From: an uncultured Clostridia bacterium | Lineage (GTDB): Bacteria; Bacillota; Clostridia; Christensenellales; CAG-917 | Reading direction: 5' to 3' | Assembly: GCA_934277615.1 (NCBI GenBank) | Contig: CAKQUV010000001.1 | Span: forward strand, 121,035-185,034 | Length of the DNA: 64,000 nucleotides | Shown: one piece after another, positions 43,488 to 63,336 of the stretch | Layout of the letters: every line of letters begins with the position of its first letter | Numbering within the stretch: position 1 is the stretch's first letter | The notes under the pieces: generated by a model | Database searches by the model: none | Seen by the model: the letters and a program-made list of their open reading frames with translations, nothing else | What the model was told of the DNA's origin: nothing | Program-made: the position numbers and the translations under genes

Positions 43488-43904
43488 AAAACAATTTAAT
43501 GATTCTAATCGGGGTATAGCGCAGTTTGGTTTGCGATAAGCAACGACCGCAAACAAAGTTGTTCCGTATCCGACATCGTCACCTGTCGCGTTGTGTCGAA
43601 AACGCAAGACCTGACGGAAATGCGCGAGCGCGCTCCCAAACATAAGGACACGCCGTCGAATAAAGGCAGTAATGATACAAACTTAATAATTCTAATCGGG
43701 GTATAGCGCAGTTTGGTTTGCGATAAGCAACGACCGCAAACAAAGTTGTTCCGTATCCGACATCGTCACCTGTCGCGTTGTGTCGAAAACGCAAGACCTG
43801 ACGGAAATGCGCGAGCGCGCTCCCAAACATAAGGACACGCCGTCGAATAAAGGCAGTAATGATACAAACTTAATAATTCTAATCGGGGTATAGCGCAGTT
43901 TGGT
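43488..43904 (+). repeat. Tandem 187-bp duplication carrying the first 21 nt of tRNA-Pro
   Basis: Units 43510-43696 and 43697-43883 are identical by eye. Each begins cggggtatagcgcagtttggt, as does the real tRNA at 43884. A partial diverged copy lies upstream. Confidence 0.9.
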
Positions 43905-43960
43905 AGCGCGCTTGACTGGGGGTCAAGAGGCCATGGGTTCAAGTCCCGTTACTCCGACCA
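43884..43960 (+). tRNA. tRNA-Pro (anticodon GGG)
   Basis: Hand-folded cloverleaf: acceptor cggggta/tactccg, D arm gcgc-agtttggta-gcgc, anticodon arm cttga-CUGGGGG-tcaag, T arm atggg-ttcaagt-cccgt. CCA is encoded. Length is 77 nt. Confidence 0.9.
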
Positions 43961-44262: not shown

Positions 44263-44339
44263 GTTTCCGTAGCTCAGCAGGATAGAGCGTTCGCCTCCTA
44301 AGCGAAAGGCCGTGGGTTCGACTCCCGCCGGGAACACCA
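44263..44339 (+). tRNA. tRNA-Arg (anticodon CCU)
   Basis: Hand-folded cloverleaf: acceptor gtttccg/cgggaac, D arm gctc-agcaggata-gagc, anticodon arm ttcgc-CUCCUAA-gcgaa, T arm gtggg-ttcgact-cccgc. CCA is encoded. Length is 77 nt. Confidence 0.9.
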
Positions 44340-44726
44340 ATCACACCCCCACAGGGGTGTGTTTGTTTTTCTTGCGGTAGTTGTGCGCCTTGCGCACGTG
44401 CTTCGCACTCGACCCCACTTCCGTGGCTGACGCTTCGCTATTCCGTCATTCCATTCCTTACGACTCCCGCCGGGAACACCAATCACACCCCCACAGGGGT
44501 GTGTTTGTTTTTCTTGCGGTAGTTGTGCGCCTTGCGCACGTGCTTCGCACTCGACCCCACTTCCGTGGCTGACGCTTCGCTATTCCGTCATTCCATTCCT
44601 TACGACTCCCGCCGGGAACACCAATCACACCCCCACAGGGGTGTGTTTGTTTTTCTTGCGGTAGTTGTGTGCTTTGCGCACATGCTTTACACCCGCCCCC
44701 TCTTCCGTGGCTGACGCTTCGCTATT
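44319..44726 (+). repeat. Tandem 142-bp repeats, each starting with the last 21 nt of tRNA-Arg plus its terminator
   Basis: cgactcccgccgggaacacca occurs at 44319, 44461 and 44603. Each is followed by the hairpin cacaccccc-aca-ggggtgtg plus a T-run. Units 1 and 2 are identical. Unit 3 is diverged and is cut off at ~44726 by the stop codon of the first island gene. Confidence 0.9.
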
Positions 44727-47172
44727 CAACCTCATCCAACATTTTTGTAAGCTCTTCTATACAGTTGTCATACTCGTTATTGTCTGGATCAATTCTTTTT
44801 AACCAACTATACATTAATATGCCTTTTTCAATAGGAATACGATGTCTGTCAACGTAAGACAAAATGCGCCAAGCTTCGGCTACATCTTTTATGTCGTCGA
44901 TCATTTCCAACGTTATGTGTGCTTTTCCGTCTTCGGTTGGTGCCATTGTGGCGTTTAAACATTTCTCAATGATGGGAATCATTACGTTTATTGCTCTCAA
45001 ATAATGCTCTCGAATATCGTATAATTCCTCTTCTGTCATTTCGAGATCGTTTGAGTTTTTAGATTCAGCTCTGTCCATCTGTTTTTCTAACAGTGTGGAC
45101 GCAATCGCCATATTCCCCTTGTATATACTTCTTCTACATTCGGGGAAATCGGCTTTAGACAGAACCTTGTTTAGTAAATCGATAGATTCTTTATAACACG
45201 ATAGTTCTTCCTCGATTTTTCCTTGTGCATGATTTAATTTTGCTATGTGACTATAACAATTCGCTTTATCGCTATAATCTTCCACAGCATCAGACTGTTT
45301 CAATACTTGCTCAATGTAGCCAATCGCCTCGGAAAACCATGCTTTGGCATCTTCAAACTCATTTAGCTTTGTGCACTCAATCCCTGCTCTGAAGCAAACA
45401 ACAAAAGCCACTCTATAATACGGCAGTTTTTGCTTGTCTATTAAAAAACGCTTAATCAACTCCATTGCCTTGTCATAGTAATCTAAGCTTGCTTCGCCAT
45501 TATAATCTGCGATGGCGCCGAGATTACTATACATTATTGCCATTACATATGCATTATCTTCTTTATTTCGCACAGACTCTCCGTGCGAATGATTTTGTAT
45601 TGAGAAAGCCGATTCTATATAGTCTTTAGCATATTCGAGATCTCCTGCCTTTAAAAACAGCGTCCCCAGATTATTATAAACTTCTGCCAAATAATCCCCT
45701 GCCGACTCAATATGATTTGAATAGCAGCGTTCCATTAAATCTTTTGCTTTTCTATAAGATTTTGCGGCAGCGGACATCTCGTTTTCAGTACTATAGCAAA
45801 ATGCCAATTTGTTATAACACAGGTTATAATAATAAAGAGTTTTTCCATTCAATTTACTTTCATCTATTAACGATAAAAGTTTTATCGCCTCTTCAAGTTT
45901 TTCTATCGCTTGATTCAATCTATAAATCTCTATCAACAAACTTGCACAATTGCAAATAGATCCGACATAATCCAAATACTCATCTTGATTATCCGGTGAG
46001 GCTTTATCTTTTTTTATTTCTATAATCGTGTTTTGGTATGCAATTGCTTTATCGTAATCAATAGAGACGCCATGCCCCCTATGATAAATGTCAACAAGCT
46101 TTTCTATTGCAGGTAAATAATTATATTCCGAACACTTTGTTAATATCGTTATCCCTTTTTCCGTATTAACCTCTACGTCTATACCGAATAAATACGCCAA
46201 TCCAATAAGGTATTTATGTTCAGGTAAAAAGTCGTTGTTTTTTACATTTAAATAAGACAAGGCGTCTATCAGTGAACTGTCGAAAACAGGTTTGTCGTGA
46301 ACGTTTACCAATTCGGGAATATCATCAAACGCATCAAACACCGATTGTTTATTCGTTTCCACCAACTCTACCGGGAATATGTATTTACCTCTCGCTTTTG
46401 CAATAGGATACTCTGTGGTAATAATATAATTGAGTTCATTGACTACGTTTGGAGTGATCACCACGGAAAAAACATCGCATTTGTCGATCTCCTGCTCTAT
46501 TTCATAATTAAAGTTTTCTCCGGGCGTTAAAAATTCGTCATACCAAACCCCGACATCTTCAAGTTTATCGTTTTCATGCATCAACTTTATGAATTCATTG
46601 GCGTATTTTCTGTCTTTTTTTCTATAACTAACAAACACATGCGCATCGAATTCTGATTTTATTTGTTCGATTGTTTCATCTTCCAATAAAACAGATTTTA
46701 AAAATCTTTCCAGCTTCTTGGAAAATGGAATTGAAGTATTGTCCAAGTCAAATCTGGACATGAATTGGACATTGCCAAAAATCTTATTATATGATTCTAA
46801 AATATCTGTCTCTTGTAAAATCGGTAAAATCGGGATACGTTTTTCTCTTATAAATACAAATTCTTTAGAATTTATCAAATTGCTATCACTTAAAAATCTA
46901 TTTGTAATCGGAATCACAATTAGTTGCATTTGTCCCAACGTCAATTCCAAATCATCCTCTATATATTCGCTCGAATCCGGCTTATACCAAATAGAACAAT
47001 TTGCAACATCCAGAATATCCCTGCATATTTCGTCAAAAAACAATTTATAGTCTTCAGAGTGAGCGAAAAAATAAACCCTAGCCTTCCCCGTTGGCAAACT
47101 ATCCCCTCGAGTTTTGCATAATAATTGCATAATACTTAGCCCCTTTATCGTTAAATTAGCATAACGATTCAA
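44722..47172 (-). CDS. Tandem TIR-like domains fused to Sel1/TPR repeats (816 aa)
   Basis: The first TIR-like module is RVYFFAHSEDY...CSIWYKPD...LIVIPIT. The second is canonical: HVFVSYRKKDRKYANEF...VGVWYDEFLTPGENF...DVFSVVITPNVVNE. Sel1-like repeats follow (IYHRGHGVSIDYDKAIAY), then a long TPR-like region. The gene is AT-rich. An alternative start is at 47130. Confidence 0.75.
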   Translation of the reverse strand: MNRYANLTIKGLSIMQLLCKTRGDSLPTGKARVYFFAHSEDYKLFFDEICRDILDVANCSIWYKPDSSEYIEDDLELTLGQMQLIVIPITNRFLSDSNLINSKEFVFIREKRIPILPILQETDILESYNKIFGNVQFMSRFDLDNTSIPFSKKLERFLKSVLLEDETIEQIKSEFDAHVFVSYRKKDRKYANEFIKLMHENDKLEDVGVWYDEFLTPGENFNYEIEQEIDKCDVFSVVITPNVVNELNYIITTEYPIAKARGKYIFPVELVETNKQSVFDAFDDIPELVNVHDKPVFDSSLIDALSYLNVKNNDFLPEHKYLIGLAYLFGIDVEVNTEKGITILTKCSEYNYLPAIEKLVDIYHRGHGVSIDYDKAIAYQNTIIEIKKDKASPDNQDEYLDYVGSICNCASLLIEIYRLNQAIEKLEEAIKLLSLIDESKLNGKTLYYYNLCYNKLAFCYSTENEMSAAAKSYRKAKDLMERCYSNHIESAGDYLAEVYNNLGTLFLKAGDLEYAKDYIESAFSIQNHSHGESVRNKEDNAYVMAIMYSNLGAIADYNGEASLDYYDKAMELIKRFLIDKQKLPYYRVAFVVCFRAGIECTKLNEFEDAKAWFSEAIGYIEQVLKQSDAVEDYSDKANCYSHIAKLNHAQGKIEEELSCYKESIDLLNKVLSKADFPECRRSIYKGNMAIASTLLEKQMDRAESKNSNDLEMTEEELYDIREHYLRAINVMIPIIEKCLNATMAPTEDGKAHITLEMIDDIKDVAEAWRILSYVDRHRIPIEKGILMYSWLKRIDPDNNEYDNCIEELTKMLDEVE

Positions 47173-47173
47173 T

Positions 47174-48262
47174 TTACTTCCCTCGTATTGCTATAGATAC
47201 AAACACCGCAAGTTCGCCGTCTTTGCCTATCGCTTGACTATGCTGTGCGTCAATCTGCTCTTTTATCGGCAAATCCCAGTCAAGCGTAACAAGCTCGTCC
47301 CCGAACACAAGCCGGAACAAACTCCCCTTTTTATCCAATGTCGCAATGTCCCCGTTAAAACTGCAAAGCGAATTGTCATTCCCAAATTTTTTGACAATGC
47401 CTCTTTTGTTGTAATGCGCAAATACTCTTAGCAATACCGCAAGCGGCGTATCCGACAAATCCGCCTTCACCATAACGGTGGTATGTACTTTGTTCAGCCA
47501 CAACGGTATCTCTTTCGGGCGTTCCTCTTTTCCCACGAGTTTTTTCCTCAAATCGTCGATTTGCGACATAATTGCGCTCACTTCGGTATCTTCTGCCAAA
47601 GGCGTTTCATCCGCGGATTCTTCACTTTGCGGTTCTTCCTCTTGCGACACTCTCGCATTGGCAATGATTTTGGAAAGTTCCTCCTCTTCCTTCTCTTCCT
47701 CGGCTTTTCTCGCCGCTGCGGCCCTTTCCTGCCGTTCACCTTCCGCGTCCATCTTCCGCTTCATTTCGGCTTTGTCCTTTTTGAACATGTTTACCATTTT
47801 GATGTAATCATCTTCGCCTATTGTGCCACGATACATATCTCCGTCCTGCACGACAAGCCCTCTCGCTTGCAAATACGCAAGCGTGGCGTCCACGTCGATT
47901 GCGGCGTCTTTTGACGCGGCGCGAAGCTCATCGACGGTCTTTCCTTCGAGATCTTCCAGCATTCTAATGACGTTAAATGCCTGCATATCTATCTCATACA
48001 TAATCTCTTTAAGCTCGCTGTTGGAGAACTCCTTTTTCCAATCTCCGTTCTCTTTGCGCACCTGCTCGATTTTCTCATTATCTTCCGTAACGGCAAACTC
48101 ACCGTCCCCGCTTTCCTCGATAATGCCTTTCCCCAGCAAATATCGCATAACGTCAAAAGCCTCTTCATAAGAGCAACTTCCGATAGCCGCCACGCTTTCG
48201 AGATTGACGGATTTTGTTTTCATCATTTTTCTGAGAGATCTTATCAACAGTCTATCGTCCAT
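47174..48262 (-). CDS. Hypothetical protein: two winged-helix-like modules, acidic coiled coil, beta-rich C-terminus
   Basis: The ORF stops 1 nt before the next gene. AFDVMRYLLGKGIIEE and ATLAYLQARGLVVQDG look like wHTH recognition regions. There is an EEKEEEE linker. No enzymatic motif was seen. Confidence 0.55.
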   Translation of the reverse strand: MDDRLLIRSLRKMMKTKSVNLESVAAIGSCSYEEAFDVMRYLLGKGIIEESGDGEFAVTEDNEKIEQVRKENGDWKKEFSNSELKEIMYEIDMQAFNVIRMLEDLEGKTVDELRAASKDAAIDVDATLAYLQARGLVVQDGDMYRGTIGEDDYIKMVNMFKKDKAEMKRKMDAEGERQERAAAARKAEEEKEEEELSKIIANARVSQEEEPQSEESADETPLAEDTEVSAIMSQIDDLRKKLVGKEERPKEIPLWLNKVHTTVMVKADLSDTPLAVLLRVFAHYNKRGIVKKFGNDNSLCSFNGDIATLDKKGSLFRLVFGDELVTLDWDLPIKEQIDAQHSQAIGKDGELAVFVSIAIRGK

Positions 48263-48283
48263 TTTACACCTTTCGCTTAGATA

Positions 48284-50866
48284 TTATTTCTTCCAGAATA
48301 CGCGCGCGACGTTTACGATATCATAATCGTTGTACGTTTCGTCAAGCATAGAAAACGGCACCAGACAATCATGTTCGTTTCTGGCTTTTCCCGCTTTTTT
48401 TGGCGCTTTACGACGCTCTTCAAAATCATCTTCGCTTTCGCCCTCTTGTCTTGAAGGCATTTTTTGATTGAACGTCCAGCCACCGGCAATATACGACCTA
48501 TTCCACCTCTCGTGCTCGAGCTCTGCCAGCAACCGCACCTCGTCGTAAGTATAAGCGCTCGTACAATAGCACTCCCTCATCGCCGCCATAACTTTCATAA
48601 ACAAGGACGCGGACTTGTTCGATTCTCTTTCTGCGAGAGTAACCTCTTTCCATTCCGTTCTCAAACACTCTTTGTCCTCGTTTTGCACAGCCGTATTGAA
48701 ATCGCGCAACAAAGTGTAATACCCACCGTTTTTATCCGGGGTTTCTCTGTTGGGAAAATACTGTTTCATTTCCGGAACTTGATTTTCGAGCTGTTCTCTT
48801 CTGAGGAGCACGTATGCGTGATTGTACTTCATCTGCTCGTCCTCGTCGATGATTTGATTGTACGAGTAAATCTCATCCCTGTTTCCGAAAACGATCACTT
48901 TCAAATTGCCGTATCGTTTGGCGTCGTCATCGCTCCAGTTGATTCTGTCGCGGTTTTTCTTATTGAGGATATTGATTGCAATCGTTTGCAACTTTGCAGG
49001 TCTTGCCGCATTGCGCAGATTGTTGAGTTCGTGTTTGATATCCGCAAGCAAGGCGTTTGCCATCTTGATATTATCCTCGTCTTTCCCGAGGGCAACTATT
49101 ATAAGGTTATATTCCTGCGAGCGCGAATCTGCGCCCGTTCTCGAATCCAGATAATCCAGATAATCCGAGCTGAAACACGACGCATTGTGCATAACCACCA
49201 CAGGCAACTTCATTTGATTTTCGATGTCCTCGAGCGTCGCCGCGCGATCTTTTTTGAAATCCGAGGAAAGATTCATCGTTTTGCCGACTAAGCTATGATA
49301 CGTCGTATCGATTTTCTCTCTACGTTTGTTCCTGATTTGTTCTTCAATCTCGTTTTGACTAAGAACGCCCTTGTCGTCGACGCACACGATCAACGGATGT
49401 TGCAATTCAAAAATACCGCTCACAGAACCTGCGTCTTTATCGAATATGTCGGCTCTGAATTGCGTCGGCATGTGGTAATCGGGCTGTTTGTTGTCTATTT
49501 TAGTCGACATAACATAGGATTGCAACATAGTCCTTTGGCCCGTCGCGCCAAAGCCGACAACCATGACTTTGTACGTCGATTCGCCCGTATCCTGAATCAA
49601 CGAATTCGCGTCCCACTCATTGTTTCTTGCCTCCGCAAACAGTTTTGCGGTTATGTCGGACTCGTTGACAATATGCAAGGAAAACTCATTCTCATTGACG
49701 ACGCCGCGAGGATTGCGCACTTCGATTGCTCCGTTTTCAAGCACGGACGCCTTCTCGCGATTTTTACGGTGAATTCGCGGATTTGCGGATTCTAAGCCGC
49801 TATCTACGCACTTTTTCTTGTAATTGTCGTAATACGTGTAGTTTATATCTCTGTTTGTAAGTATGTAGTAATCGACAAAAACAGGTTTCTTGTTGCATTC
49901 CACGATTTCTCGCGCGACGTTCTCGATTTCGTTAAATACGATTTCCGTATTCACGGTTTCTTCGCCGCTGAAATCCTCGTCGTTATGCATTGCAAAAATA
50001 TGGATTCTGCTGCTTTTTGCCTTGGCTTTGACAACGATTTTTTTGCCTTTTCGTTTATCTTTTTCCTCATCGTTTTGCGGCGGTTTTGTTTCAAAAAACA
50101 CGTTGTCTACATATAGTCCGAGCCTCTTGAGCATGGAAGATTCCTTATCGCCGGTTTTCTTTGAGTAAGACCAGAATATATATCCGTTGGACATAATCTC
50201 TCTGTGCAGCGGATTTTTACGGTCGAAAGACCCGATATCGTCGCCTGCAAAAATCACTTTACTTCTTCTAGGTTTTTCGGGTTTTTGAGCGTCTTTACCT
50301 GCGCCTTTGTCCTCTCGATATGCCTTTAGTGCCTTTTTGTAATTTTCCTTATCTTTGAACCTCTTTTCGTTGATGCTGTTTGCCAAAAGCAACGAATCCT
50401 GCGTTACGGACGTAAACAAATATATATCGGTATTCGTATCCGTTTTCAACCTCAAACGCAGGAAGAACAGCAACACGCCGCTGTACATCTCATAGCTGAT
50501 TCTTGTAAGGATGATACTGAAGAACACAAGCCCCGCAAGCGCCGAACTTCCAGAATACAGCCATTGCACCAGCACTCCGCCCACTTCTCCGGGGGATGAC
50601 AAGCCCTCGAATTCGAGTCCGCCGATGCTCGAATAAATGGAATAAAAGACCGTTGCAAGTCCGTCATCGAACGCGTCCGGTCTGCCCGCCGCAAAAACGG
50701 CAAATTTAACGCCAAAACTAAACGCAAACACAATAGCTATAAAAAACAACTCAACCGCAAACTTTGCGCCGGAAAATCTTTTCCTTGCCGCAATGTATGC
50801 AAACATAATCAAACCATACGCCGTCAATAAAGCTACTGCCCCTATAACTGCTCCGAGTGCCGCCAT
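48284..50866 (-). CDS. TM + Rossmann-like + C-terminal RyR-domain protein (860 aa)
   Basis: About 4 N-terminal hydrophobic helices. The glycine-rich motif is VMVVGFGATGQ. The C-terminus is LAELEHERWNRSYIAGGWTF...EHDCLVPFSMLDETYNDYDI, which fits the bacterial RyR-domain pattern EH-x-RW...GW...H-x-x-LVP(F/Y). It is a full-length paralog of 53320..55803. Confidence 0.65.
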   Translation of the reverse strand: MAALGAVIGAVALLTAYGLIMFAYIAARKRFSGAKFAVELFFIAIVFAFSFGVKFAVFAAGRPDAFDDGLATVFYSIYSSIGGLEFEGLSSPGEVGGVLVQWLYSGSSALAGLVFFSIILTRISYEMYSGVLLFFLRLRLKTDTNTDIYLFTSVTQDSLLLANSINEKRFKDKENYKKALKAYREDKGAGKDAQKPEKPRRSKVIFAGDDIGSFDRKNPLHREIMSNGYIFWSYSKKTGDKESSMLKRLGLYVDNVFFETKPPQNDEEKDKRKGKKIVVKAKAKSSRIHIFAMHNDEDFSGEETVNTEIVFNEIENVAREIVECNKKPVFVDYYILTNRDINYTYYDNYKKKCVDSGLESANPRIHRKNREKASVLENGAIEVRNPRGVVNENEFSLHIVNESDITAKLFAEARNNEWDANSLIQDTGESTYKVMVVGFGATGQRTMLQSYVMSTKIDNKQPDYHMPTQFRADIFDKDAGSVSGIFELQHPLIVCVDDKGVLSQNEIEEQIRNKRREKIDTTYHSLVGKTMNLSSDFKKDRAATLEDIENQMKLPVVVMHNASCFSSDYLDYLDSRTGADSRSQEYNLIIVALGKDEDNIKMANALLADIKHELNNLRNAARPAKLQTIAINILNKKNRDRINWSDDDAKRYGNLKVIVFGNRDEIYSYNQIIDEDEQMKYNHAYVLLRREQLENQVPEMKQYFPNRETPDKNGGYYTLLRDFNTAVQNEDKECLRTEWKEVTLAERESNKSASLFMKVMAAMRECYCTSAYTYDEVRLLAELEHERWNRSYIAGGWTFNQKMPSRQEGESEDDFEERRKAPKKAGKARNEHDCLVPFSMLDETYNDYDIVNVARVFWKK

Positions 50867-50942
50867 AATTTATCCCCTTTTCTTTTGTTTTTCAAAATAG
50901 TGATTTATTACATCTAAACGCGTCTTTTTGCAAAAACGCGGA

Positions 50943-51467
50943 TCATTCCAATATCTTGTCGATAAGCCCGTACCCCAATGCTTCTTTTGCGCTCATCCAC
51001 TTATCTCTTTCGCAATCCGCATGCAGCGTCTCGAGCGATTTGTCCATGTTATCCGCCATAATGGTTTCCAATTCGTTTCTGGATTTCGCCATATCTTCCG
51101 CAATACGTTGCATTGCGGTTTGAGGACGTGGCACTCCTTGCCTAAGCTGCATAAGCGGCTGATGAATAAGCATTCTGCTATGCGGCAAGGCATATCTTTT
51201 GCCCTTCTCTCCGCACGAAAGCAAGAATGCGCCCATGGACGCAGCCATGCCGTAGCATACGGTGGAAACGGGTGCTTTGATGAGCTTTATCGTATCGTAG
51301 ATTGCCAATCCGTAAACTATGCTGCCGCCGTTTGAATTGATATACAAACTTATCTCTTTGTTTTCGTCCTGTCTGTTGAGCTCGAGCAACTGCAAAATGA
51401 CTTTCATTGCGGAATCTTCATCCACCGTTCCGTTCAATAGCACTATACGAGGGTTATTGTTTTTCAT
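50943..51467 (-). CDS. ClpP-family serine protease, N-terminally truncated, catalytic triad intact
   Basis: It aligns by eye to E. coli ClpP from ~residue 30 onward, using my recalled E. coli sequence: YINSNGGS, GMAASMGAFLL (Ser), MLIHQP (His), CERDKWMSAKEALGYGLID (Asp). It lacks the axial-loop segment that contains DIYSRLL. Confidence 0.85.
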   Translation of the reverse strand: MKNNNPRIVLLNGTVDEDSAMKVILQLLELNRQDENKEISLYINSNGGSIVYGLAIYDTIKLIKAPVSTVCYGMAASMGAFLLSCGEKGKRYALPHSRMLIHQPLMQLRQGVPRPQTAMQRIAEDMAKSRNELETIMADNMDKSLETLHADCERDKWMSAKEALGYGLIDKILE

Positions 51468-51482
51468 ATCGTTCTCCTCCTT

Positions 51483-52031
51483 TCACTCGAGTATCTCGTC
51501 GACAATTCCGTATTCCAAAGCCTGTTGTGCGCTTAGGCTCACCCCGACTTCGCAATCTCGGTGTATTTTGTCAAAATCCGTATTCGTCTTTTGAGCAAGC
51601 ATATTCTCAAAAATCTCTCTTTCAAGCTTGACTTCTTTTGCCTCGATTGCAATCTCCGTCTCCTGATTGGCGCCGGATTGCAACATCCCGTACGGCTGCT
51701 CGAAAGAAATCTGACTATGTCTGAGCGCATATCTTTTTCCCTTGGCGCAACACGCAAGCAACAGCGCGCTATACCCGTCCGCCATGCCGACGCACGTCCC
51801 GGATATTGGCGCTTTTATGGTGTTCATCGTATCGATAATCGCCATCATATCCAAGTAACTTCCGCCGCTCGAGCCGATAAACAACTGAATATCTTCCTTC
51901 TCGCTTTTGGCATTGTAATCCATCATCTGAAAAATAATGCTCGCCGCCTTGTCCGAATTGACATATCCGCTCACGACGATAATACGGCTCTCCTCCAGCT
52001 CCTCACCAAGCGACCTAGCCTCTTTTGCCAT
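51483..52031 (-). CDS. ClpP-fold pseudoprotease (all three catalytic residues replaced)
   Basis: RBS aggagg plus M46 of the tracked ORF. In the same hand alignment to recalled E. coli ClpP, GMADGYSALLL puts Gly at the Ser position, ISFEQP puts Glu at the His position, and DCEVGVSLSA puts Gly at the Asp position. The stop lies 15 nt upstream of the active paralog. Confidence 0.75.
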   Translation of the reverse strand: MAKEARSLGEELEESRIIVVSGYVNSDKAASIIFQMMDYNAKSEKEDIQLFIGSSGGSYLDMMAIIDTMNTIKAPISGTCVGMADGYSALLLACCAKGKRYALRHSQISFEQPYGMLQSGANQETEIAIEAKEVKLEREIFENMLAQKTNTDFDKIHRDCEVGVSLSAQQALEYGIVDEILE

Positions 52032-52102
52032 AATCCTTCCTCCTGTTCCATGTGTATGATATTGAACTATATTCATCCTTAAGTTGCGACATTTTATTTG
52101 CA

Positions 52103-53278
52103 TCAATTGTATACATATGGAAGAATTTCTTTTAGACTCTTCAATCTGCGGATAAAATGATGCCAAATTTTATCATTATAAAAATCTGTATTTTTAGGGT
52201 TGATACAAAGAGTTTCAACCATTGTTGTATAAATGAACTCATCATTAAACGAATTCCCTACATATAAAATGTCTTTTGGTGAAACATGTGTCGACTGAAT
52301 AATTTTGTTTACAAATCGCGCTTTCCCCTCAAAGTCATATGGCGTACCTATAATGCCATTTAACATTCCCTGATCATCAAAAGTAAATCGATTCGCTTTA
52401 ATCTCTGTAAAACAATCTACAAGTTCTTTCCCCAATACGCATTCCACATATTGTTTAATTGATCCAGATACATTGTATAATTTTATTCCCTTGGATTTTA
52501 ATTCCATTATCACTTCTCTGGCATCATCAACGAGTTGTGCTCTTTGAGCCACTTCTTTTATATGATGTTTGTTGCACCCCACTTTTATGAACATTTTTTC
52601 TGTTATTTCACACCATTCATCATGAGAAATTTCATTATTGCTGAATTGCTTGTGATATTTTTCGCATTCACTAACATCATAACCCAAGATAGTCCACATC
52701 AGTTCCCATGTATTAGAATCTACACGCGGTTTAGTAAGTGTTCCATCGAAATCAAATACCACTATCTTTTTATTAACATGTTGAGAAACCAATTCGCTAA
52801 ATATAAGTTCTATAACTTGGCTTTTATATTGAAACACATACGGAACCGGTGGCGAGCCAATAATTCTTTTCATTGCATCTTCTCCCCAAAGAGCAGATAC
52901 TATATCTTGGTTAACCATACCATTTGTTTCGTTTTCCCATGCAAAATCTGGAAAAATCACGGGAATAAACTTTACATTTTTATTTTTTAACACCTCATCC
53001 ATCTCAATCCTTGTAACCGAATTGAGATTTGGTGTGCCATTGACAATAAACCCCTCAAAAAAATTTTTTGTTAATAGCATAATGAAATTTTCTACATTAC
53101 CCAAATATTTTTGAGGATCTAGTAAAAAATTCCTCATTTCGCTCGCATAAATTTTTTCTGGAGAATAGTAAGTTGCACCTACTTCTTCACTTTTTTGACT
53201 CATCGCAACATAGATCTCATTTGCGATTTGAATTCCTGCAGATGAGCCTCCCCGATAGCAAATAAAATTTCTATACAT
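52103..53278 (-). CDS. TIR domain fused to HAD-superfamily (PSP-like) phosphatase
   Basis: N-terminus is MYRNFICYRGGSSAG...FIMLLTKNFFEG...RIEMDEVL (TIR-like). C-terminal HAD motifs are VVFDFDGTLTK (I), VSGS (II), K-x (III) and VGNSFNDE (IV). The gene is AT-rich. Confidence 0.75.
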   Translation of the reverse strand: MYRNFICYRGGSSAGIQIANEIYVAMSQKSEEVGATYYSPEKIYASEMRNFLLDPQKYLGNVENFIMLLTKNFFEGFIVNGTPNLNSVTRIEMDEVLKNKNVKFIPVIFPDFAWENETNGMVNQDIVSALWGEDAMKRIIGSPPVPYVFQYKSQVIELIFSELVSQHVNKKIVVFDFDGTLTKPRVDSNTWELMWTILGYDVSECEKYHKQFSNNEISHDEWCEITEKMFIKVGCNKHHIKEVAQRAQLVDDAREVIMELKSKGIKLYNVSGSIKQYVECVLGKELVDCFTEIKANRFTFDDQGMLNGIIGTPYDFEGKARFVNKIIQSTHVSPKDILYVGNSFNDEFIYTTMVETLCINPKNTDFYNDKIWHHFIRRLKSLKEILPYVYN

Positions 53279-53319
53279 TATCGTTTCCTCTTTGCCAATG
53301 GCGCACATGCTCTGTGCGC

Positions 53320-55803
53320 TTAAGCCTTTCTTTTGTGCGTTTTCTTCTTCTTGCCTGCGCTTTCGCCTTTATTCTCGGCGTTTTTAGCCTCTGCGTTTTG
53401 ATTTTCGGCGTTTTGGCTTTCTGCGCCTTTTTTCTCTGCTTCTATTTCCTTTTCGCTCTTCCTTTTCACGATCATGTACCCGTTTTGATTGAGTAACCAC
53501 ACCAAATCGTCCATAATCTGATAATCGTATTTGATAACGTCAGTCTTTTCTTCGCTGCAGTTATCTTTCTTAGCCATAATCTTGCGGAATTCCACAAGCC
53601 CCTCGAACGTGGTAACGTTTCCGTGCCGTCTGAGCGCGAGATTTTTGGAATCGCCATTCTCGATTTGCTCGATAGTTGACGGAATAACGCCGTTGGATAT
53701 CATATAAGCGTTCCATCTTTGATGTTCGAGGATGGCCATAGCCTGTCTTTTACTGCCATTCACAAAGTCTATGGTATATTTGACAGGGAGTTTGCCTTTG
53801 ATACCGTCTCTTTCCTTGCCGTAGACAATGGGATCGCCCTCTTCGTATTTCTTTTCATACTCGGCGCAAGTGTCTTTTTCGTCATTGGTTCTCGGTATAT
53901 AGTCATAGCCCAAAAGATTGAGCTTTTCTCTTATGCACATACACACGTACACGTTGTTATCTCGCTGTATCTGCGATTGCGCATACCAACTCTTAAGAGC
54001 GTCTCTCTTCACGTCCTCTTCGTATTCATACTTGGTATCGCCGACAAAAAGCCGTCCGTCCGTGGGCTTTTCCGCCTCGGAAGAGTTGATTGCCGCAACC
54101 ATCGCCGCCGCCTTTTCCTTGTCCGCCTCATACCATTTCTTTATGTAATCCAAAAGCGTCATTTTCCCGTCTTTGACGGCTTGTCTGTCTTTTGCGATGT
54201 CCACTTTCTTGTACTTCGCGTCCTCGAGTTGATACGTCATGTGTTTATCTCTTGCCATCATCTCCTGATTTTCATCCACGATTTGAGAGAGATTGTACAC
54301 AAGGTTCCTCTCTATGCCGAAAGTGATAAATTCTTCTTTTAGTTTTGCTTCTTTGAATGTCGTTATGGTGTCTTTGATACCGTTAGACAACTTGTCGCTT
54401 CTTATCTTCACAAACACTTTGGTCTTATCGTACAAGCCCCATTCTTTGAGTTTTGCGACGATTTTTTCTACCATATCAAGGTTTGCCATATCCGAGCCGA
54501 ACGCGATTATCACGTAATTGAACGCACCCTCAACGTCAATATCTCTCTTTACCGATTCATAAAATCCTGCATCGTTCACGTCGAGTTTTTGACGGAAAAC
54601 AATGTTTGCGGGCTTTGGAGGCAACGGCAAGTATTTGCTCTTATCTGCCCTATCGAGCACCTCGTTTTCATACCTGAAATATGTGTGATTGAGGTTTTTA
54701 TCGTTCTCTGCGTCGCGCTTGTCGTAAACGTAATAGTTCACGTCTTTTTGCACGAGTTTTCCGTCTTTTTTCGTCAAGAATTGATTGTTGGCAACAGACG
54801 TAAGGAACACTTGTTGGCTTGTTTTGCCAAAGCCGATCATCACCACGTTCATGTTCACGTCCGATCTTATCGTGGCGCTATCGTAGTCTATCTGCTCTTC
54901 CGTCATATACCTTGTAAGCGGATAATTGCTCACAAAATCTCTGGCAATCAACTTGTACTTGTTGATGTAATGCACGCATCCCTTAGTAAGTTCCACATAT
55001 TGCAGATACGACGTCATGTTTTCGGGCTCGCCGAACACGTAGACGTTGACGCCTCTTTTTTCGTCTATTACGAAATCCGACAATTTCATCTCTTCTATGG
55101 TTTTGCTCACCTGCTGCACGTATATGAGATTCTGAGATTCGTCCTCGGTGTTGATTATCACGTTGATTTGCTTTTTGGTGAAGTCCTTAAAAGTCTTTAT
55201 CAGCGTTTTGTCAAGGTCGTCGCCCTTCTCAAATTTGATATGAGCAACCTTTTGCGCATAGCAGAAGTCCAGTATCTCATCCGTGCTTTCCGAAAGCAGC
55301 ACCACGTCCGTTTTTTCGTCTGCGGACTTGATTATGTCAACGTTATGCTCGTTGTATCCGACTACCACAAAAACCTTTTTGCTTCCCTTCGTCATCTTGA
55401 CCTTTTCGGCAAAGTTGAACATTTTTCTGTGGAATATCGTAACGGCAAATAAGATTGCGTTGAGCGTTACGAGAACAAAGCAGATGTCCATCACCGCGCG
55501 ATAGAACACGTTGTCCGCCATAAGTGCGGACACCATACTGTAGTTATAGCTCAAGACGACCAGCTCGATAGTCGCTTTTACAGAGCGCAACAGCGACTCC
55601 CAAATCGACGCGCCCGAATAGGCGATGCCCATCCAATACATGGGTATTGCCACTATATAAATCAAAGCAAACTGACCTTTTTTAAATCCCTTCAAAAACT
55701 TCAGTTTTTCTTCTCTGTTCAACAAGAACAGCCTTACGATGACGCCGACGACGATTGCCAGCATACATACAAGACACAGTGCTATAACAACGTTCATAAA
55801 CAC
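53320..55803 (-). CDS. TM + Rossmann-like + C-terminal RyR-domain protein (827 aa), paralog of 48284..50866
   Basis: N-terminal TMs. VVMIGFGKTSQQ corresponds to VMVVGFGATGQR. FNYVIIAFGSDMANLDM corresponds to YNLIIVALGKDEDNIKM. The C-terminus is AILEHQRWNAYMISNG...HGNVTTFEGL...YDYQIMDDL, followed by a lysine/glutamate-rich tail. Confidence 0.65.
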   Translation of the reverse strand: MFMNVVIALCLVCMLAIVVGVIVRLFLLNREEKLKFLKGFKKGQFALIYIVAIPMYWMGIAYSGASIWESLLRSVKATIELVVLSYNYSMVSALMADNVFYRAVMDICFVLVTLNAILFAVTIFHRKMFNFAEKVKMTKGSKKVFVVVGYNEHNVDIIKSADEKTDVVLLSESTDEILDFCYAQKVAHIKFEKGDDLDKTLIKTFKDFTKKQINVIINTEDESQNLIYVQQVSKTIEEMKLSDFVIDEKRGVNVYVFGEPENMTSYLQYVELTKGCVHYINKYKLIARDFVSNYPLTRYMTEEQIDYDSATIRSDVNMNVVMIGFGKTSQQVFLTSVANNQFLTKKDGKLVQKDVNYYVYDKRDAENDKNLNHTYFRYENEVLDRADKSKYLPLPPKPANIVFRQKLDVNDAGFYESVKRDIDVEGAFNYVIIAFGSDMANLDMVEKIVAKLKEWGLYDKTKVFVKIRSDKLSNGIKDTITTFKEAKLKEEFITFGIERNLVYNLSQIVDENQEMMARDKHMTYQLEDAKYKKVDIAKDRQAVKDGKMTLLDYIKKWYEADKEKAAAMVAAINSSEAEKPTDGRLFVGDTKYEYEEDVKRDALKSWYAQSQIQRDNNVYVCMCIREKLNLLGYDYIPRTNDEKDTCAEYEKKYEEGDPIVYGKERDGIKGKLPVKYTIDFVNGSKRQAMAILEHQRWNAYMISNGVIPSTIEQIENGDSKNLALRRHGNVTTFEGLVEFRKIMAKKDNCSEEKTDVIKYDYQIMDDLVWLLNQNGYMIVKRKSEKEIEAEKKGAESQNAENQNAEAKNAENKGESAGKKKKTHKRKA

Positions 55804-58037: not shown

Positions 58038-58952
58038 TCAGTACAATTTATCGCATTCAACTGCAAGTTCTGAAATCGACTTTGCATTGCTGCCTCTGCC
58101 GACCGCTTTGAAAACCCATTCGCTGCCAACCCTTGTCGCAATCCCTACGACCAACGCCGTATTGCCGCCCATGTTTGCGTTTACCCTATATTCCACAAGC
58201 GGAGTGTGCGAAACGGGATCGTAAAGTTTTATGTACATATTCTTCACTTTGGACAAATTCTGCTTTCTTTTCACGCAGTCGTATATGTTGAGCACAAACA
58301 CGAGTTTATCTCTGTCCGTCGGCACTTTGTCCAAAAACACGTCTATGTTTTCATCGTCTACGTTTGGTCCTATATCGACGCCCGTAAGGTTGTCGCCGTG
58401 ATGCACCACGCATCCGCTCGGATGTTTCAATTTTCCGAAATACACGATGTCGAATCCTCTTTGCCCCATCACGAACACCGACGAATCGATATCCATATTC
58501 GCTCTTTCGGTTGCGCCGACGGGATCCCATCCCAATCCGACGACAATTCTCTTCAACGGCTTATTGTTGAATCTGATTTTAATCTCCTGCCCTTGCGACA
58601 ACCTGATTACGTCGCCGTCTTTATAGCCCGATACTCTCGTCGCGTCCGAATAGTCGATTTTCATATTCTTGCAATATATGCATTGAAAATCCGCGCCTCT
58701 GCCGCCCTGGCATTCTCTTGCCTTGCAGGCGCAGCCTCCGACAACGCGACTGCGGCACTTGTCGCACGGCAAAAGCGTTGAATTTGTCTCGAACTTTGCC
58801 TGCCTTATTTCGGAGGTCATAACTTTCGCCTCGTCGGCGGATATTTCCAAAAAGTTTACGACCTTCCACTCGCCGCCGAATTGTTTGATTTCCAAACCGA
58901 AATGCTTTCCCGTAAGCGAACATTGCGCTTTCAAAAACTTCGTGTTTTCCAT
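58038..58952 (-). CDS. Cys-rich zinc-ribbon N-terminus fused to a TerD-family domain
   Basis: The Cys cluster is CDKCRSRVVGGCACKARECQ...CIYC. The TerD core is VGLGWDP...MDIDSSVFVM...VVHHGDNLTG...DDENIDVFLDKVP...LVFVLNIY. Confidence 0.75.
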   Translation of the reverse strand: MENTKFLKAQCSLTGKHFGLEIKQFGGEWKVVNFLEISADEAKVMTSEIRQAKFETNSTLLPCDKCRSRVVGGCACKARECQGGRGADFQCIYCKNMKIDYSDATRVSGYKDGDVIRLSQGQEIKIRFNNKPLKRIVVGLGWDPVGATERANMDIDSSVFVMGQRGFDIVYFGKLKHPSGCVVHHGDNLTGVDIGPNVDDENIDVFLDKVPTDRDKLVFVLNIYDCVKRKQNLSKVKNMYIKLYDPVSHTPLVEYRVNANMGGNTALVVGIATRVGSEWVFKAVGRGSNAKSISELAVECDKLY

Positions 58953-58954
58953 TT

Positions 58955-60004
58955 TTAGACCTCCAAATATTTTTTATCTATCCCCTCGGACAACAGCAAC
59001 GCTTTTCTTTGCCGTATCTGCGCTTGCACAAGAAGTCGCAAAGGCGTTCTCCCCGAGCAAACCCAGGTCGCGCGTTTTGTCCACGTCCTGTTGTATGCCA
59101 TTTCTTTATCAGTGCAACCGAAATACTTGTCTATCGTCTTGTCCGCCGACGTTGCGTCCCACGTTACGTCAACGTGAAAATACTCTTTATTGTCAAACGA
59201 AACGACGTTCCAGGCGTGCGTACACAACTGACCTTTAACTTGTCCGTGCACGACGTAGCACGTAATTCCCTGCGTATCCAGCAATCTTTTGTACGCCTCC
59301 GCAAAGCCTTGGCACACGCACTTTTTATTGACAAGCGCGCCGTATGCGCTTTGTTTGTACCCTTTATCCACGGGATTAAGTTTCTTCCCTCCCGTGTACC
59401 AGTATTCCACCGTCTTGGCAAGATAGTTGTGCGCGACGTACGCTTTTATCTCGGGCGTCATGCTTTTTGAAAAGATTGCGCTTGCGACCTCTTTCAGTTT
59501 GTCGTTCAATTCTCTTTTAAGCATATCCGAGAGCACTTTGCCGATTCTGTATTCAAATTTGAAAACGGCAAATTTGATTTTGTAAGTTTTCCAGGTATAC
59601 GGCTGATACGACACGATTTGCAGATTTGAATAAAACGCCTTATTCGCGACAAAGTCCGAATACAACGCTTTATAATCCAAATCAACCCCGGGTTTTGGAA
59701 AAACAACCAATCGTTTTTGAAATTGTTCCACGGCGTTTATCATAGCGTCCTCGGCTTGATATCCGTCGCTAACGTTCACGATATCCTGCCTTTTGACTTC
59801 CGTGTTTGTGTATTTAAAATCAAAAACGACTTTCCCTTCAACCACTTTCGTTTTCTGTTCGGCAATATAAACGCCTATCCCGGGATCTTTCGCTACCGCC
59901 TGCGCTATGACGGCGGCAGGGGACGTTCCTCCCTCATATTCGATGTGGAGTTGAAAGTCGTATATCCCGTCTATAAATGCGTCTATATTGTTTACCGTGA
60001 TCAT
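58955..60004 (-). CDS. Transglutaminase-like cysteine protease-fold protein
   Basis: The start was moved to M62 (MITVNN) at 60004, 2 nt after the kinase stop. The Cys-His-Asp core is KKCVCQGFAEAYKRLL...CTHAWNVVSF...YFHVDVTWD. Confidence 0.75.
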   Translation of the reverse strand: MITVNNIDAFIDGIYDFQLHIEYEGGTSPAAVIAQAVAKDPGIGVYIAEQKTKVVEGKVVFDFKYTNTEVKRQDIVNVSDGYQAEDAMINAVEQFQKRLVVFPKPGVDLDYKALYSDFVANKAFYSNLQIVSYQPYTWKTYKIKFAVFKFEYRIGKVLSDMLKRELNDKLKEVASAIFSKSMTPEIKAYVAHNYLAKTVEYWYTGGKKLNPVDKGYKQSAYGALVNKKCVCQGFAEAYKRLLDTQGITCYVVHGQVKGQLCTHAWNVVSFDNKEYFHVDVTWDATSADKTIDKYFGCTDKEMAYNRTWTKRATWVCSGRTPLRLLVQAQIRQRKALLLSEGIDKKYLEV

Positions 60005-60006
60005 TT

Positions 60007-61449
60007 TTATTTCTTCTTTGCGTATCCGAACATTACGAGTTGGTGTATCAACACAAATTGATTTGTGCCGTCTTTTCTCATTAAAACGTAGCCTTTTCTG
60101 CCGTTTTTCTGATGTTTTGCAATGCCTGCGTACCCGTCGCTTTTCGCTTTTTCGCCGTCTATACAATACCCTGCGTCCGTATCCCAAACTTCGTTCGACA
60201 AAACAAACGCTGCGGTTGTCGATTCTTTTTTCTTTTCATCCGCGCTCGACGGAGCGACAACCCAGCCAAGAATTTTCAGCGTATTTATGGAGAACACGTT
60301 GCTCGTGCCGTCCGCTCTATAGAATTTATAACAATTCACGCCCTTTCTGTTGATTCTTTTCGATGACGCAAATCCGCTTTCTCTGAGCTTTGCGATATCG
60401 AATTTGCATTTGTGCTCTTCCCACGGCTCGCAATAGCCTTTCGGCACTTCTGTATCTGAATCTCTCGTCGTCGCGCTCGGCTTTATCGGGGATACCGCCG
60501 TCATTCCTTCAATAACGACGCCTTGTCCTTCGTCGAAAGGAAGAACGCGCTTGCTTTTCAGCACGTCCAGCACCTCCTGAGCGGAAATTCTCTTTTCGGG
60601 ATCGGCATACAGCATATTCGCAATCAAGCGTTGCATATATTCGTCTTTTATCTTTTTGGATATCACAAGCTTTGCGTCCGAAACCAACGCCTCTCCGCAA
60701 TACACCACTTTTCCCTCGTCCGCTTTGGCTTTCAACTTGTCGCTAAGCCCCGTGATTTTGGGGAATTCGCCTTTTGTCAGATAGTTATAAAAGACGATAC
60801 CCAGCGAAAACACGTCGGATTTTGTGGACAATTTCGCCATAGCGTCCTCTTCGCATTCGCTGATAAGGCACCAGGTGAGCTCCGGCGACATATATAGTTG
60901 ATCTCCGCCCAAATCTTTTTCTCTCACGCTGTTTGCAAAATAGCTCTTATCGAAGTCGATGATTTTTGCAACCACTTTCCCCGACGAATTTCTTGCGGCG
61001 AGGATATTTGTGCGTTTTAAGTCGCTATGCACGATGTTTTTTCCGTGGATATCCTTGATGGCTTTTGCCGCCGTCATCATCACGAAATTCAACTCGTCGC
61101 CCGATAGCTCCATTATCTTTTCGTCCTCTATGAGGTCGTTGATAAACTCGGTGGCTTCTATAAAGTTGATATCGTCCACAAACCATTTCGTCGGCAAAAT
61201 GATGTTTCCGCCCTCGCACGCAATCGTCGAAAGAGCCTCGTTTATGGCGGATCTGTATTTTACAAAGTCGTTGAACTCGGCGTTTAGTCTTGCAAAAAGT
61301 CTGTCGCTCGTCGCCGCGTTTTTTCTGGGCTTTTTGTATTCGCCGTAGCGTTTGAGAAAGTATTTTTTGCTTCCCTTTGTCGCCAAAGCCGTAAAGCCGA
61401 CGTTCGATACCTTCCAATCCCCTATCAGTTCATATCCCCCGACATTCAT
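60007..61449 (-). CDS. Ser/Thr protein kinase with two C-terminal ~60-aa repeats
   Basis: Motifs are YFLKRY (catalytic Lys region), IVHSDLKRTNIL (HxDLKxxN), IIDFDKS (DFG variant) and YMSPE (APE). The C-terminal repeats are GYC...RKG...Y..R.DGT...F....L...G(W/Y). Confidence 0.8.
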   Translation of the reverse strand: MNVGGYELIGDWKVSNVGFTALATKGSKKYFLKRYGEYKKPRKNAATSDRLFARLNAEFNDFVKYRSAINEALSTIACEGGNIILPTKWFVDDINFIEATEFINDLIEDEKIMELSGDELNFVMMTAAKAIKDIHGKNIVHSDLKRTNILAARNSSGKVVAKIIDFDKSYFANSVREKDLGGDQLYMSPELTWCLISECEEDAMAKLSTKSDVFSLGIVFYNYLTKGEFPKITGLSDKLKAKADEGKVVYCGEALVSDAKLVISKKIKDEYMQRLIANMLYADPEKRISAQEVLDVLKSKRVLPFDEGQGVVIEGMTAVSPIKPSATTRDSDTEVPKGYCEPWEEHKCKFDIAKLRESGFASSKRINRKGVNCYKFYRADGTSNVFSINTLKILGWVVAPSSADEKKKESTTAAFVLSNEVWDTDAGYCIDGEKAKSDGYAGIAKHQKNGRKGYVLMRKDGTNQFVLIHQLVMFGYAKKK

Positions 61450-63209: not shown

Positions 63210-63225
63210 CCCTTTTCCCCCTAGG

Positions 63226-63263
63226 AAAAACAAACGGATTGCCCCAAGGGGAGCAATCCGTTT
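63226..63263 (-). terminator. Intrinsic terminator-like hairpin between the vWA and PP2C genes
   Basis: The minus strand reads caaacggattgctccccttggggcaatccgtttgttttt, with an ~11-bp stem and a T-run. It ends ~15 nt before the PP2C RBS. Confidence 0.5.
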
Positions 63264-63336
63264 GCGTCAACAGGCACAAAGCCTTTTTGTAACAATTCTT
63301 TGCTCCGTAAGTTATCTCGGACAAATAAATGTCGCA

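Follow-up and report, generated by a model that had tools for sequence, protein, structure and literature searches.

A stretch of 64,000 nt from an uncultured Clostridia bacterium (Christensenellales, CAG-917; GenBank assembly GCA_934277615.1, contig CAKQUV010000001.1, positions 121,035 to 185,034; hereafter the window) carries on its minus strand a gene for a protein with two N-terminal TIR domains, a Sel1-like neck and a long array of tetratricopeptide repeats (TPR). We refer to this protein as TIR-TPR. Its head is a pseudo-TIR followed by a TIR domain of the catalytic type, and the repeat array behind the head is far more variable. TIR-TPR represents a large family from gut and rumen Clostridia, whose members could act as self-contained sensor-effectors of an immune type.

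A pseudo-TIR and a catalytic-type TIR form the head

The two modules of the head were assigned as follows, with residues numbered throughout on an 802-aa version of the protein:

46681..47130, minus strand: degenerate N-terminal TIR-like domain, residues 1–150 (hhalign, AlphaFold2 and Foldseek)
46354..46638, minus strand: canonical TIR domain, residues 165–259 (Pfam TIR_2 match)

The second module matched Pfam PF13676 (TIR_2) across residues 165–259 with an E-value of 9.3e-12 and 45.9 bits (cut-off 28). When a profile of the first 315 residues was built from 29 diverse relatives, it matched the NADase AbTIR, TLR10 and other TIR domains in the Protein Data Bank (PDB), and these matches ran through the second module only. 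An AlphaFold2 (AF2) model of both domains (pLDDT 86) contained two beta-alpha-beta-alpha units, and Foldseek matched it to SPARTA, SARM1, AbTIR, MyD88 and PdTIR. The second TIR retains box 1 (FDAxxFxSYRKKD). E240 (46411–46413) is invariant in all 115 family members aligned, as are the residues W196–E199 and, in the BB-loop P203-G204-E205 (46516–46524), P203 and G204; E205 is kept in 113 of the 115. On this sequence evidence the C-terminal module of the head is a genuine TIR domain with catalytic-type residues, and E240, from its conservation and its position on helix alpha-C, would be the catalytic glutamate.

The first module gave no Pfam match, and a weak one was seen in two of the 29 relatives. 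Its profile nevertheless aligned to the TIR profile of the family from beta-B to beta-D with an hhalign probability of 96.9% (E 1.9e-10), pairing 'NCAVWY...MQLFVIPVT...EFxFA...IPVLP' with 'DIAIWYDEF...LFALVVTPN...EYPxA...ILPAE'. In a library of 1.84 billion proteins, the N-domain profile matched two stretches in essentially every protein of the family. Modeled alone, the N-domain was predicted to have a beta-alpha-beta fold (pLDDT 90), and its best PDB matches in Foldseek were all TIR domains (E 7e-5 to 1e-3, TM 0.5–0.64), among them RPS4/RRS1, SNC1, AbTir (TM 0.60), SPARTA TIR-APAZ (TM 0.64), BtpA, SARM1 and EcThsB. Since the hhalign alignment, the two-stretch profile matches and the AF2 and Foldseek results all identify the first module as a diverged TIR domain, it is best described as a diverged duplicate of the second. 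It has no PG BB-loop, the corresponding loop being of low confidence in the AF2 model, and the equivalent of the conserved glutamate, E90, is kept in just 85 of the 115 members. Because the PG loop and the invariant glutamate are kept in the second module and not in the first, the head is a pseudo-TIR joined to a catalytic-type TIR. The original prediction, made from the window's letters, of a degenerate TIR-like module followed by a canonical one is thus borne out for both modules by profile searches, through Pfam for the second and through hhalign, together with TIR structural matches, for the first.

The gene probably starts at an internal ATG

44722..47130, minus strand: TIR-TPR coding sequence, 802 aa plus stop (open reading frame list, homologue starts, identity to P0001)
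47131..47172, minus strand: 14-codon TTG upstream extension, probably untranslated (homologue starts, ribosome-binding site serving the ATG)

The gene had been described as encoding 816 aa. The open reading frame (ORF) list does contain a TTG-initiated minus-strand ORF of that length at 44722–47172, and the motifs cited for it, HVFVSYRKKDRKYANEF, WYDEF and VVITPNVVNE, are all found in its translation. The length needs correction, in that translation almost certainly begins at the ATG at 47130, which gives 802 aa. An AAAGGGG ribosome-binding site lies at 47140–47146, 9 nt 5' of this ATG. All 120 best homologues start at the equivalent methionine, before a conserved KTRGxSSPQGKPRVYF segment, and a 100%-identical 802-aa cluster representative from public metagenomes (P0001) was called from the same ATG. 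It is the agreement between ribosome-binding site, public gene call and homologue starts that places the start here.

No signal peptide or transmembrane (TM) segment was found in TIR-TPR (maximum hydropathy 1.16). As had been noted earlier, there is also no sign of an NTPase: the protein matched no Pfam NTPase family and contains neither a Walker A nor an hhhhD[DE] motif. The gene is the final one of a co-directional run spanning 44.7–64 kb, and it is convergent with tRNA-Arg(CCT) (44263–44339) and tRNA-Pro(GGG) (43884–43960).

A conserved neck leads into a variable TPR array

46021..46224, minus strand: two Sel1-like repeats, neck between TIR head and TPR array, residues 303–370 (conserved columns)
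44725..46020, minus strand: variable TPR array, residues 371–802, putative sensor (TPR family matches)

The head is followed by what had been predicted as about 500 aa of Sel1/TPR-type repeats. The TPR part of this prediction is firm, with TPR_12 matching at E 1.5e-13, TPR_2, TPR_8 and TPR_10 likewise above their cut-offs, and TPR families spanning residues 400–700. The Sel1 part is conserved but falls below the cut-off of PF08238 (15.5 bits vs 30.7, E 0.027). Many columns of the neck are invariant (H305, L311–Y313, G316, G352 and G354), phrog_8741 matches residues 303–377, and many homologues carry recorded PF08238 matches. The TPR array diverges much faster than the TIR head, identity to relatives being 35–72% in the heads and 13–60% in the C-terminal half.

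TIR-TPR belongs to a large family of mostly lone genes

More than 1,500 relatives of TIR-TPR were recovered by a word-indexed search, and an exhaustive search with the N-domain yielded 2,359 clusters at 50% identity, comprising proteins of 520–1,900 aa in which this domain is always N-terminal. One protein, P0121 (1903 aa), has the N-domain at residues 938–1087 and four matching stretches, and looks like a fusion or read-through of two family genes. At least 562 loci were present in species-representative genomes, all of them from gut and rumen Clostridia, with hosts in the Christensenellaceae, Lachnospiraceae, Oscillospiraceae and Acutalibacteraceae and including Gemmiger formicilis and Pseudoflavonifractor capillosus. 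Several metagenome-assembled genomes carry two or three copies. The source annotations of relatives read solely 'tetratricopeptide repeat protein' or 'TIR domain-containing protein'. The family is large, confined to gut and rumen Clostridia and without a curated model. Carriage on phages or plasmids was considered and rejected (zero matches in both collections and two IMG/VR loci).

Gene neighborhoods were counted over 80 genome loci of the family, with 929 flanking ORFs. All-against-all clustering of these ORFs returned no gene family present in more than 8 of the 80 loci. TIR-TPR genes mostly stand alone, lacking a conserved partner, and no neighbor is obligatory; an association with RyR-domain proteins (see below) emerged only when single domains were compared.

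A proposed sensor-effector with a NADase head

By analogy with characterized TIR proteins, we consider it a finely balanced proposition that TIR-TPR is an autonomous, cytoplasmic, single-polypeptide sensor-effector of an immune type, with a NADase head; the absence of any obligatory neighbor fits such an autonomous protein. In this scheme the C-terminal TPR array would be the sensor and would bind a trigger, most plausibly a protein of a phage or other invader. Binding of the trigger would release or re-arrange the heads, so that TIR–TIR contacts between them could complete the active site. NAD+ would then be cleaved to nicotinamide and ADP-ribose (ADPR) or cyclic ADPR (cADPR)-type products, and the loss of NAD+ would arrest growth of the infected cell. 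Active TIR assemblies need a TIR–TIR contact, which the internal pseudo-TIR may imitate or prevent. The immune 'sensor-scaffold' role suggested in the original prediction is plausible by analogy. The setting in the window is defence-like as well: the cluster of genes upstream of TIR-TPR includes a TerY-P triad, whose kinase matches the PADLOC models mad6, MkoA and PD-T4-6.

Several points weigh against the sensor-effector proposal. For every member of the family, the function is a prediction. HMMER placed the AbTIR glutamate four residues before E240. No NCBIfam model covers the family, and its PADLOC matches are weak and only at the level of the TIR domain (PDC-S66, 1.3e-4; ThsB, 2.4e-4). Family members are missing from the phage and plasmid collections, and the only two IMG/VR loci that carry one both lie near contig ends. 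The immediate neighbors, 126 in number, are mostly housekeeping genes; few of them reach PADLOC models at 1e-10, and no PADLOC family is matched by more than two. Finally, RyR-domain proteins recur beside TIR-TPR, which suggests that what the TIR domain makes could serve as a signal and that NAD+ depletion may not be the end-point.

RyR-domain proteins recur beside TIR-TPR

In a Pfam scan of the immediate neighbors, RyR was among the few recurrent domains. An iterative search identified 13 RyR-domain ORFs in 11 of the 80 loci, all of them at gene rank 1–3 from TIR-TPR and none among the 464 ORFs farther out (hypergeometric p 2.6e-5). The RyR ORF stands at rank 1 in 8 of these 11 loci (p 4.7e-5), and in some loci the ORFs overlap in an operon-like manner. 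At least three architectures are represented, namely TM/TrkA_N-like/RyR proteins, HD-like/RyR proteins and small proteins. A profile of these RyR domains matched Repeat12 of the ryanodine receptor and 3NRT, an RyR-like protein of Bacteroides thetaiotaomicron, with E-values down to 2.7e-29.

Two such proteins are encoded upstream in the cluster of the window itself, at rank 2 and rank 6 from the TIR-TPR gene, and had been overlooked in the original prediction:

48284..50866, minus strand: 860-aa membrane protein with a C-terminal RyR domain (Pfam RyR E 1.4e-4, domain profile)
53320..55803, minus strand: 827-aa protein with a second RyR-like domain (motif ILEHQRW at ~53730, profile)

The 860-aa protein has TM helices at its N terminus, a Rossmann-like region with a GxGxxG motif, and an RyR domain at its C terminus (ELEHERW at ~48520), and it is collinear with the TM-TrkA_N-RyR neighbors of other TIR-TPR genes. 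The xEHxRW motif occurs twice in the 64-kb window, only in the 860-aa and 827-aa proteins. According to a 2026 preprint (PMC13232231), certain phage proteins use H75, W78, H100 and D117 of their RyR (R12) domains to bind 2'/3'cADPR, which TIR domains produce, or to hydrolyse it. The spacing of these RyDEP residues is reproduced in the 860-aa protein (H..W, H and D at +17), while the nearest D in the 827-aa protein is at +20. The 827-aa protein also gave a weak CofC-like nucleotidyltransferase signal (E 6e-4) in addition to its C-terminal RyR-like domain.

Elsewhere, the cultured isolates Gemmiger formicilis An723 and Pseudoflavonifractor capillosus An386a (L057 1311–8603; L062 9620–17141) carry TIR-TPR followed by two RyR-domain genes, one encoding a 475-aa TM/Rossmann-like/RyR protein and the other a ~660-aa HD-like/RyR protein. 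A module of two ClpP genes, the TM-RyR gene and a gene for a small protein, together with a pair of genes for a TraG-like and a ~300-aa protein, is conserved between the window (47174–52166) and an unrelated genome (L100 3874–11431), where the RyR homologue is 30% identical and the TIR gene is absent. A fixed three-gene module of RyR, small protein and TIR-TPR was considered and rejected, the intervening proteins being non-homologous across loci.

These neighbors bring into view a Thoeris-like pair, which we regard as possible but doubtful. TIR-TPR would make a 2'/3'cADPR-type signal, and the adjoining RyR proteins would read it or end it. The tentative candidates here would be the 860-aa TM/Rossmann-like/RyR protein and the 827-aa protein, with receptors acting as membrane effectors and RyDEP-like glycosidases as an off-switch. 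Such a pair would account for the enrichment of RyR ORFs next to TIR-TPR and their preference for rank 1, and is favored by the variety of architectures in which the domain arrives, by the location of both xEHxRW motifs of the window within this one cluster, and by the Repeat12 and 3NRT matches and RyDEP-like residue spacing. However, the association is facultative, as no RyR gene is in reach at 86% of the family's loci, and none lies near the closest relatives of the TIR-TPR gene (L001–L003). In the reverse direction, starting from relatives of the 860-aa protein or from the 475-aa RyR proteins, the association is weak. The 860-aa homologues keep the two ClpP genes and the TraG-like pair as neighbors with no TIR gene nearby, and 70%-identical homologues of the 475-aa family have no TIR-TPR neighbors. 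The genes lying between TIR-TPR and its RyR partners are also non-homologous from locus to locus, and the TIR-TPR gene appears to be a recent insertion here (see below), so the adjacency in the window may be fortuitous. We therefore retain the autonomous sensor-effector as the preferred reading, with the Thoeris-like pair as its main rival.

A compositionally foreign gene at the end of a Ter-type cluster

Two further features of the upstream cluster are:

47174..48262, minus strand: 362-aa protein with a weak winged-helix signal, immediately upstream of TIR-TPR after a 43-nt gap (ORF list, Pfam)
52103..53308, minus strand: HAD-family hydrolase (Pfam)

Moving upstream from TIR-TPR, the genes encode the 362-aa protein, the 860-aa RyR protein, two ClpP paralogues, the HAD hydrolase, the 827-aa protein, an LRR_5 protein, TerD, a transglutaminase-like protein and a kinase/PP2C/vWA set. 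The Ser/Thr kinase, PP2C and vWA genes form a TerY-P triad (window 58038–63987, with TerD, transglutaminase-like and LRR_5), as defined in PMC11090510. The longest ORF for the transglutaminase-like protein (58955–60187, 410 aa, TTG) overlaps the kinase gene (60007–61449) by 181 nt; public calls of this gene give 349 aa, and the real start is probably downstream. The cluster runs beyond 64 kb (L096 1–10000), with a helix-turn-helix (HTH) gene and a divergent pair encoding a 301-aa and a TraG/VirD4-like protein.

A comparable cluster surrounds a relative with 64% identity to TIR-TPR (P0002), in which TerD is 54%, ClpP 48% and the transglutaminase 30% identical to their counterparts in the window. 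LRR_5 is present there as well, along with many NUDIX, metallophosphatase, His-phosphatase and Zeta-kinase genes and one for a second TIR protein. The relatives P0003 and P0005 lie in unrelated gene contexts. Cluster-specific genes (TerD, HAD, the 827-aa protein, kinase, PP2C, vWA and the 860-aa RyR protein) were found in none of the 80 genome loci, where LRR_5 and transglutaminase gave weak partial matches only, and no homologue of the 362-aa protein was found beside other family members. Beyond the window's own species, its neighbor genes recur only in L003 and L005. Co-occurrence with TerD or TerY-P is not a conserved trait of the family.

The TIR-TPR gene differs from its neighbors in composition. 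Its GC content is 0.353 and its GC at third codon positions (GC3) 0.349, compared with a mean GC of 0.466 for the window and GC3 of 0.52–0.63 for neighboring genes and about 0.55 for genes of the host. A windowed GC profile is non-uniform, and its lowest 500-nt window (GC 0.31) falls inside the TIR-TPR gene, as originally predicted; the gene as a whole is not the lowest in the window, since the HAD gene has the lowest gene-wide value (GC 0.333, GC3 0.279). The genes most closely related to TIR-TPR, P0002 and P0003, come from loci of 31–34% GC and agree in composition with those loci. Given the GC3 gap to its neighbors and relatives at home in low-GC genomes, recent horizontal acquisition from a low-GC member of the Clostridia is supported by the sequence, in agreement with the earlier suggestion of a recently acquired cassette. 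The HAD gene is a second compositionally foreign cassette, which adds weight to the view that this cluster takes in foreign cassettes by exchange. The remaining co-directional genes resemble the host in GC, with a single further exception. Nothing notable was seen in the Arg codon bias of the gene with respect to the adjoining tRNA.

These data bear on an unlikely alternative, in which TIR-TPR would be a component of the Ter-type cluster that supplies or processes an NAD-derived metabolite, and not an independent sensor. TIR-TPR is co-directional with the cluster and lies 43 nt from the next gene, and P0002 likewise sits inside a TerD/transglutaminase/LRR_5/ClpP cluster with many NUDIX, phosphatase and kinase genes and a second TIR. 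Against this, cluster-specific genes are absent from all 80 genome loci, the contexts of P0003 and P0005 are unrelated, and the foreign GC3 points to recent entry of the gene into the cluster. Least convincing is a role of the TIR domains as non-enzymatic adaptors, in an assembly scaffold or a host-directed Tcp-like factor: many TIR domains are adaptors, TPR arrays are generic interaction platforms and the N-terminal TIR is clearly degenerate, but the second TIR keeps its invariant glutamate and PG BB-loop across 115 diverse members, and the protein comes from gut commensal Clostridia with no signal peptide or TM segment and no conserved secretion context.

The tRNA junction

44263..44339, plus strand: tRNA-Arg(CCT) (ARAGORN; Rfam 67 bits)
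44319..44727, plus strand: three tandem copies of a 142-nt unit (44319–44460, 44461–44602 and, truncated, 44603–44727)

Each 142-nt unit opens with the final 21 nt of the tRNA-Arg, includes a terminator-like hairpin and has ~90 nt more. Copies 1 and 2 are identical, and copy 3 is 86% identical over 125 of the 142 nt. The stop codon of TIR-TPR (CTA on the plus strand, 44722–44724) and its last codon lie within copy 3, which breaks off exactly at these two codons, confirming that the gene ends inside the truncated third repeat. Copy number differs between assemblies, with three in the window, two in L090 (12371–12637) and one in L009 (12380–12560). A second array, of a 187-nt unit, occupies 43493–43904 with two tandem copies and the 38-nt start of a third; each copy holds 17 nt of upstream sequence and the first 21 nt of tRNA-Pro(GGG), and the last runs into the tRNA. 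There are two copies of this unit in the window and in L090 and one in L091 and L092. Many metagenome contigs of the window's species break within the repeat arrays. Apart from the two tRNAs, an Rfam search of the arrays at E-values up to 1 gave no match.

A strain of 99.3% identity (L009, 12556–14672) has its tRNA-Arg interrupted at the anticodon loop, with unrelated DNA carrying a Fic/HTH gene preceding it. Because this Fic-bearing DNA interrupts the tRNA, the sequence points to integration of a different element at the same site and to the tRNA-Arg as an active integration site. The 21-mer of the tRNA 3' end was present in the window only in the three adjacent copies, with none in the 10 kb beyond, and no integrase was identified in the part of the cluster scanned or in those 10 kb. 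The cluster is present on every long contig recovered with the flanking M28 gene and on the related contig L009. The original prediction had proposed that the gene might mark the terminus of an island, with a search for homologues at tRNA-Arg(CCU) loci as a check. Three of the relatives' loci scanned have a tRNA within ~500 nt, none of them tRNA-Arg(CCU), and adjacency to this tRNA was rejected as a family trait. With neither an integrase nor a distal repeat in the sequence scanned, and none of the scanned relatives at tRNA-Arg(CCU), an island terminus here is unproven.

Relation to known systems and significance

The closest architectural parallel is TIR-II of E. coli, an anti-phage system in which TIR and TPR are combined in a single protein and the TIR catalytic residues are required (PMC11350192); among the new TIR systems of E. 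coli it is reportedly the most widespread. Like TIR-II, TIR-TPR combines both parts in one polypeptide, and across 80 loci it has no conserved partner. The likeness is one of architecture: TIR-TPR has a tandem TIR head, which is not described for TIR-II, about 30% of TIR-II proteins carry an ATPase, and the present family belongs to Clostridia. DSR2 (PMC11850899), a single-gene abortive-infection system, follows a similar logic: a NADase head at the N terminus precedes a long tail of helical repeats to which a phage protein binds, though the head is a SIR2 domain not homologous to TIR. In SARM1, which was among the structural matches, a TIR NADase is restrained by a helical-repeat (ARM) domain and its activity needs TIR–TIR assembly; SARM1 differs in that it is eukaryotic, has a single TIR and octamerises through SAM domains. 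TIR-STAND/Avs proteins and plant TIR-NLRs share the logic of a TIR effector with a C-terminal repeat sensor, but the STAND NTPase of TIR-STAND/Avs, bNACHT and TIR-NLR proteins is missing from TIR-TPR.

In Thoeris, the TIR protein ThsB makes cADPR-type signals from NAD+ after phage sensing (types I–XI; bioRxiv 10.64898/2025.12.03.692087). TIR-TPR may resemble Thoeris in that a protein of cADPR-binding type (RyR) adjoins it in 14% of family loci. Unlike Thoeris, it has no known effector nearby (SIR2/SLOG, Macro, DUF2270, SLATT and others), its PADLOC match to ThsB is only 2.4e-4, and it adds a large TPR sensor and a second TIR. The main text of that Thoeris survey (bioRxiv 10.64898/2025.12.03.692087) makes no mention of 'RyR'. 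The 860-aa and 827-aa proteins share EHxRW...H motifs with phage RyDEP, and the 860-aa protein also the D at +17 (PMC13232231); whereas RyDEPs are small phage anti-defence proteins, the proteins here are chromosomal fusions to membrane or Rossmann-like modules with predicted ligand binding.

Single-protein TIR and TPR defence is known from E. coli, and we did not find a conserved tandem TIR head described elsewhere. The RyR adjacency raises the idea that bacteria employ RyR domains of their own to receive or regulate TIR signals, a role shown so far just for phage counter-defence proteins. It is possible but doubtful that tandem-TIR/TPR and chromosomal RyR proteins make up an unrecognised Thoeris-like axis in gut Clostridia, in which the signal of a TPR-gated TIR would be received by the RyR domain of a TM/TrkA_N-like membrane protein or cleared by a RyDEP-like glycosidase. 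If so, this axis would be a bacterial counterpart of the animal link between cADPR and the ryanodine receptor, and dispersed, variable TIR-TPR paralogues might feed one shared effector. The pseudo-TIR/TIR head, for its part, could reveal how TIR–TIR contacts gate a NADase within a single chain.

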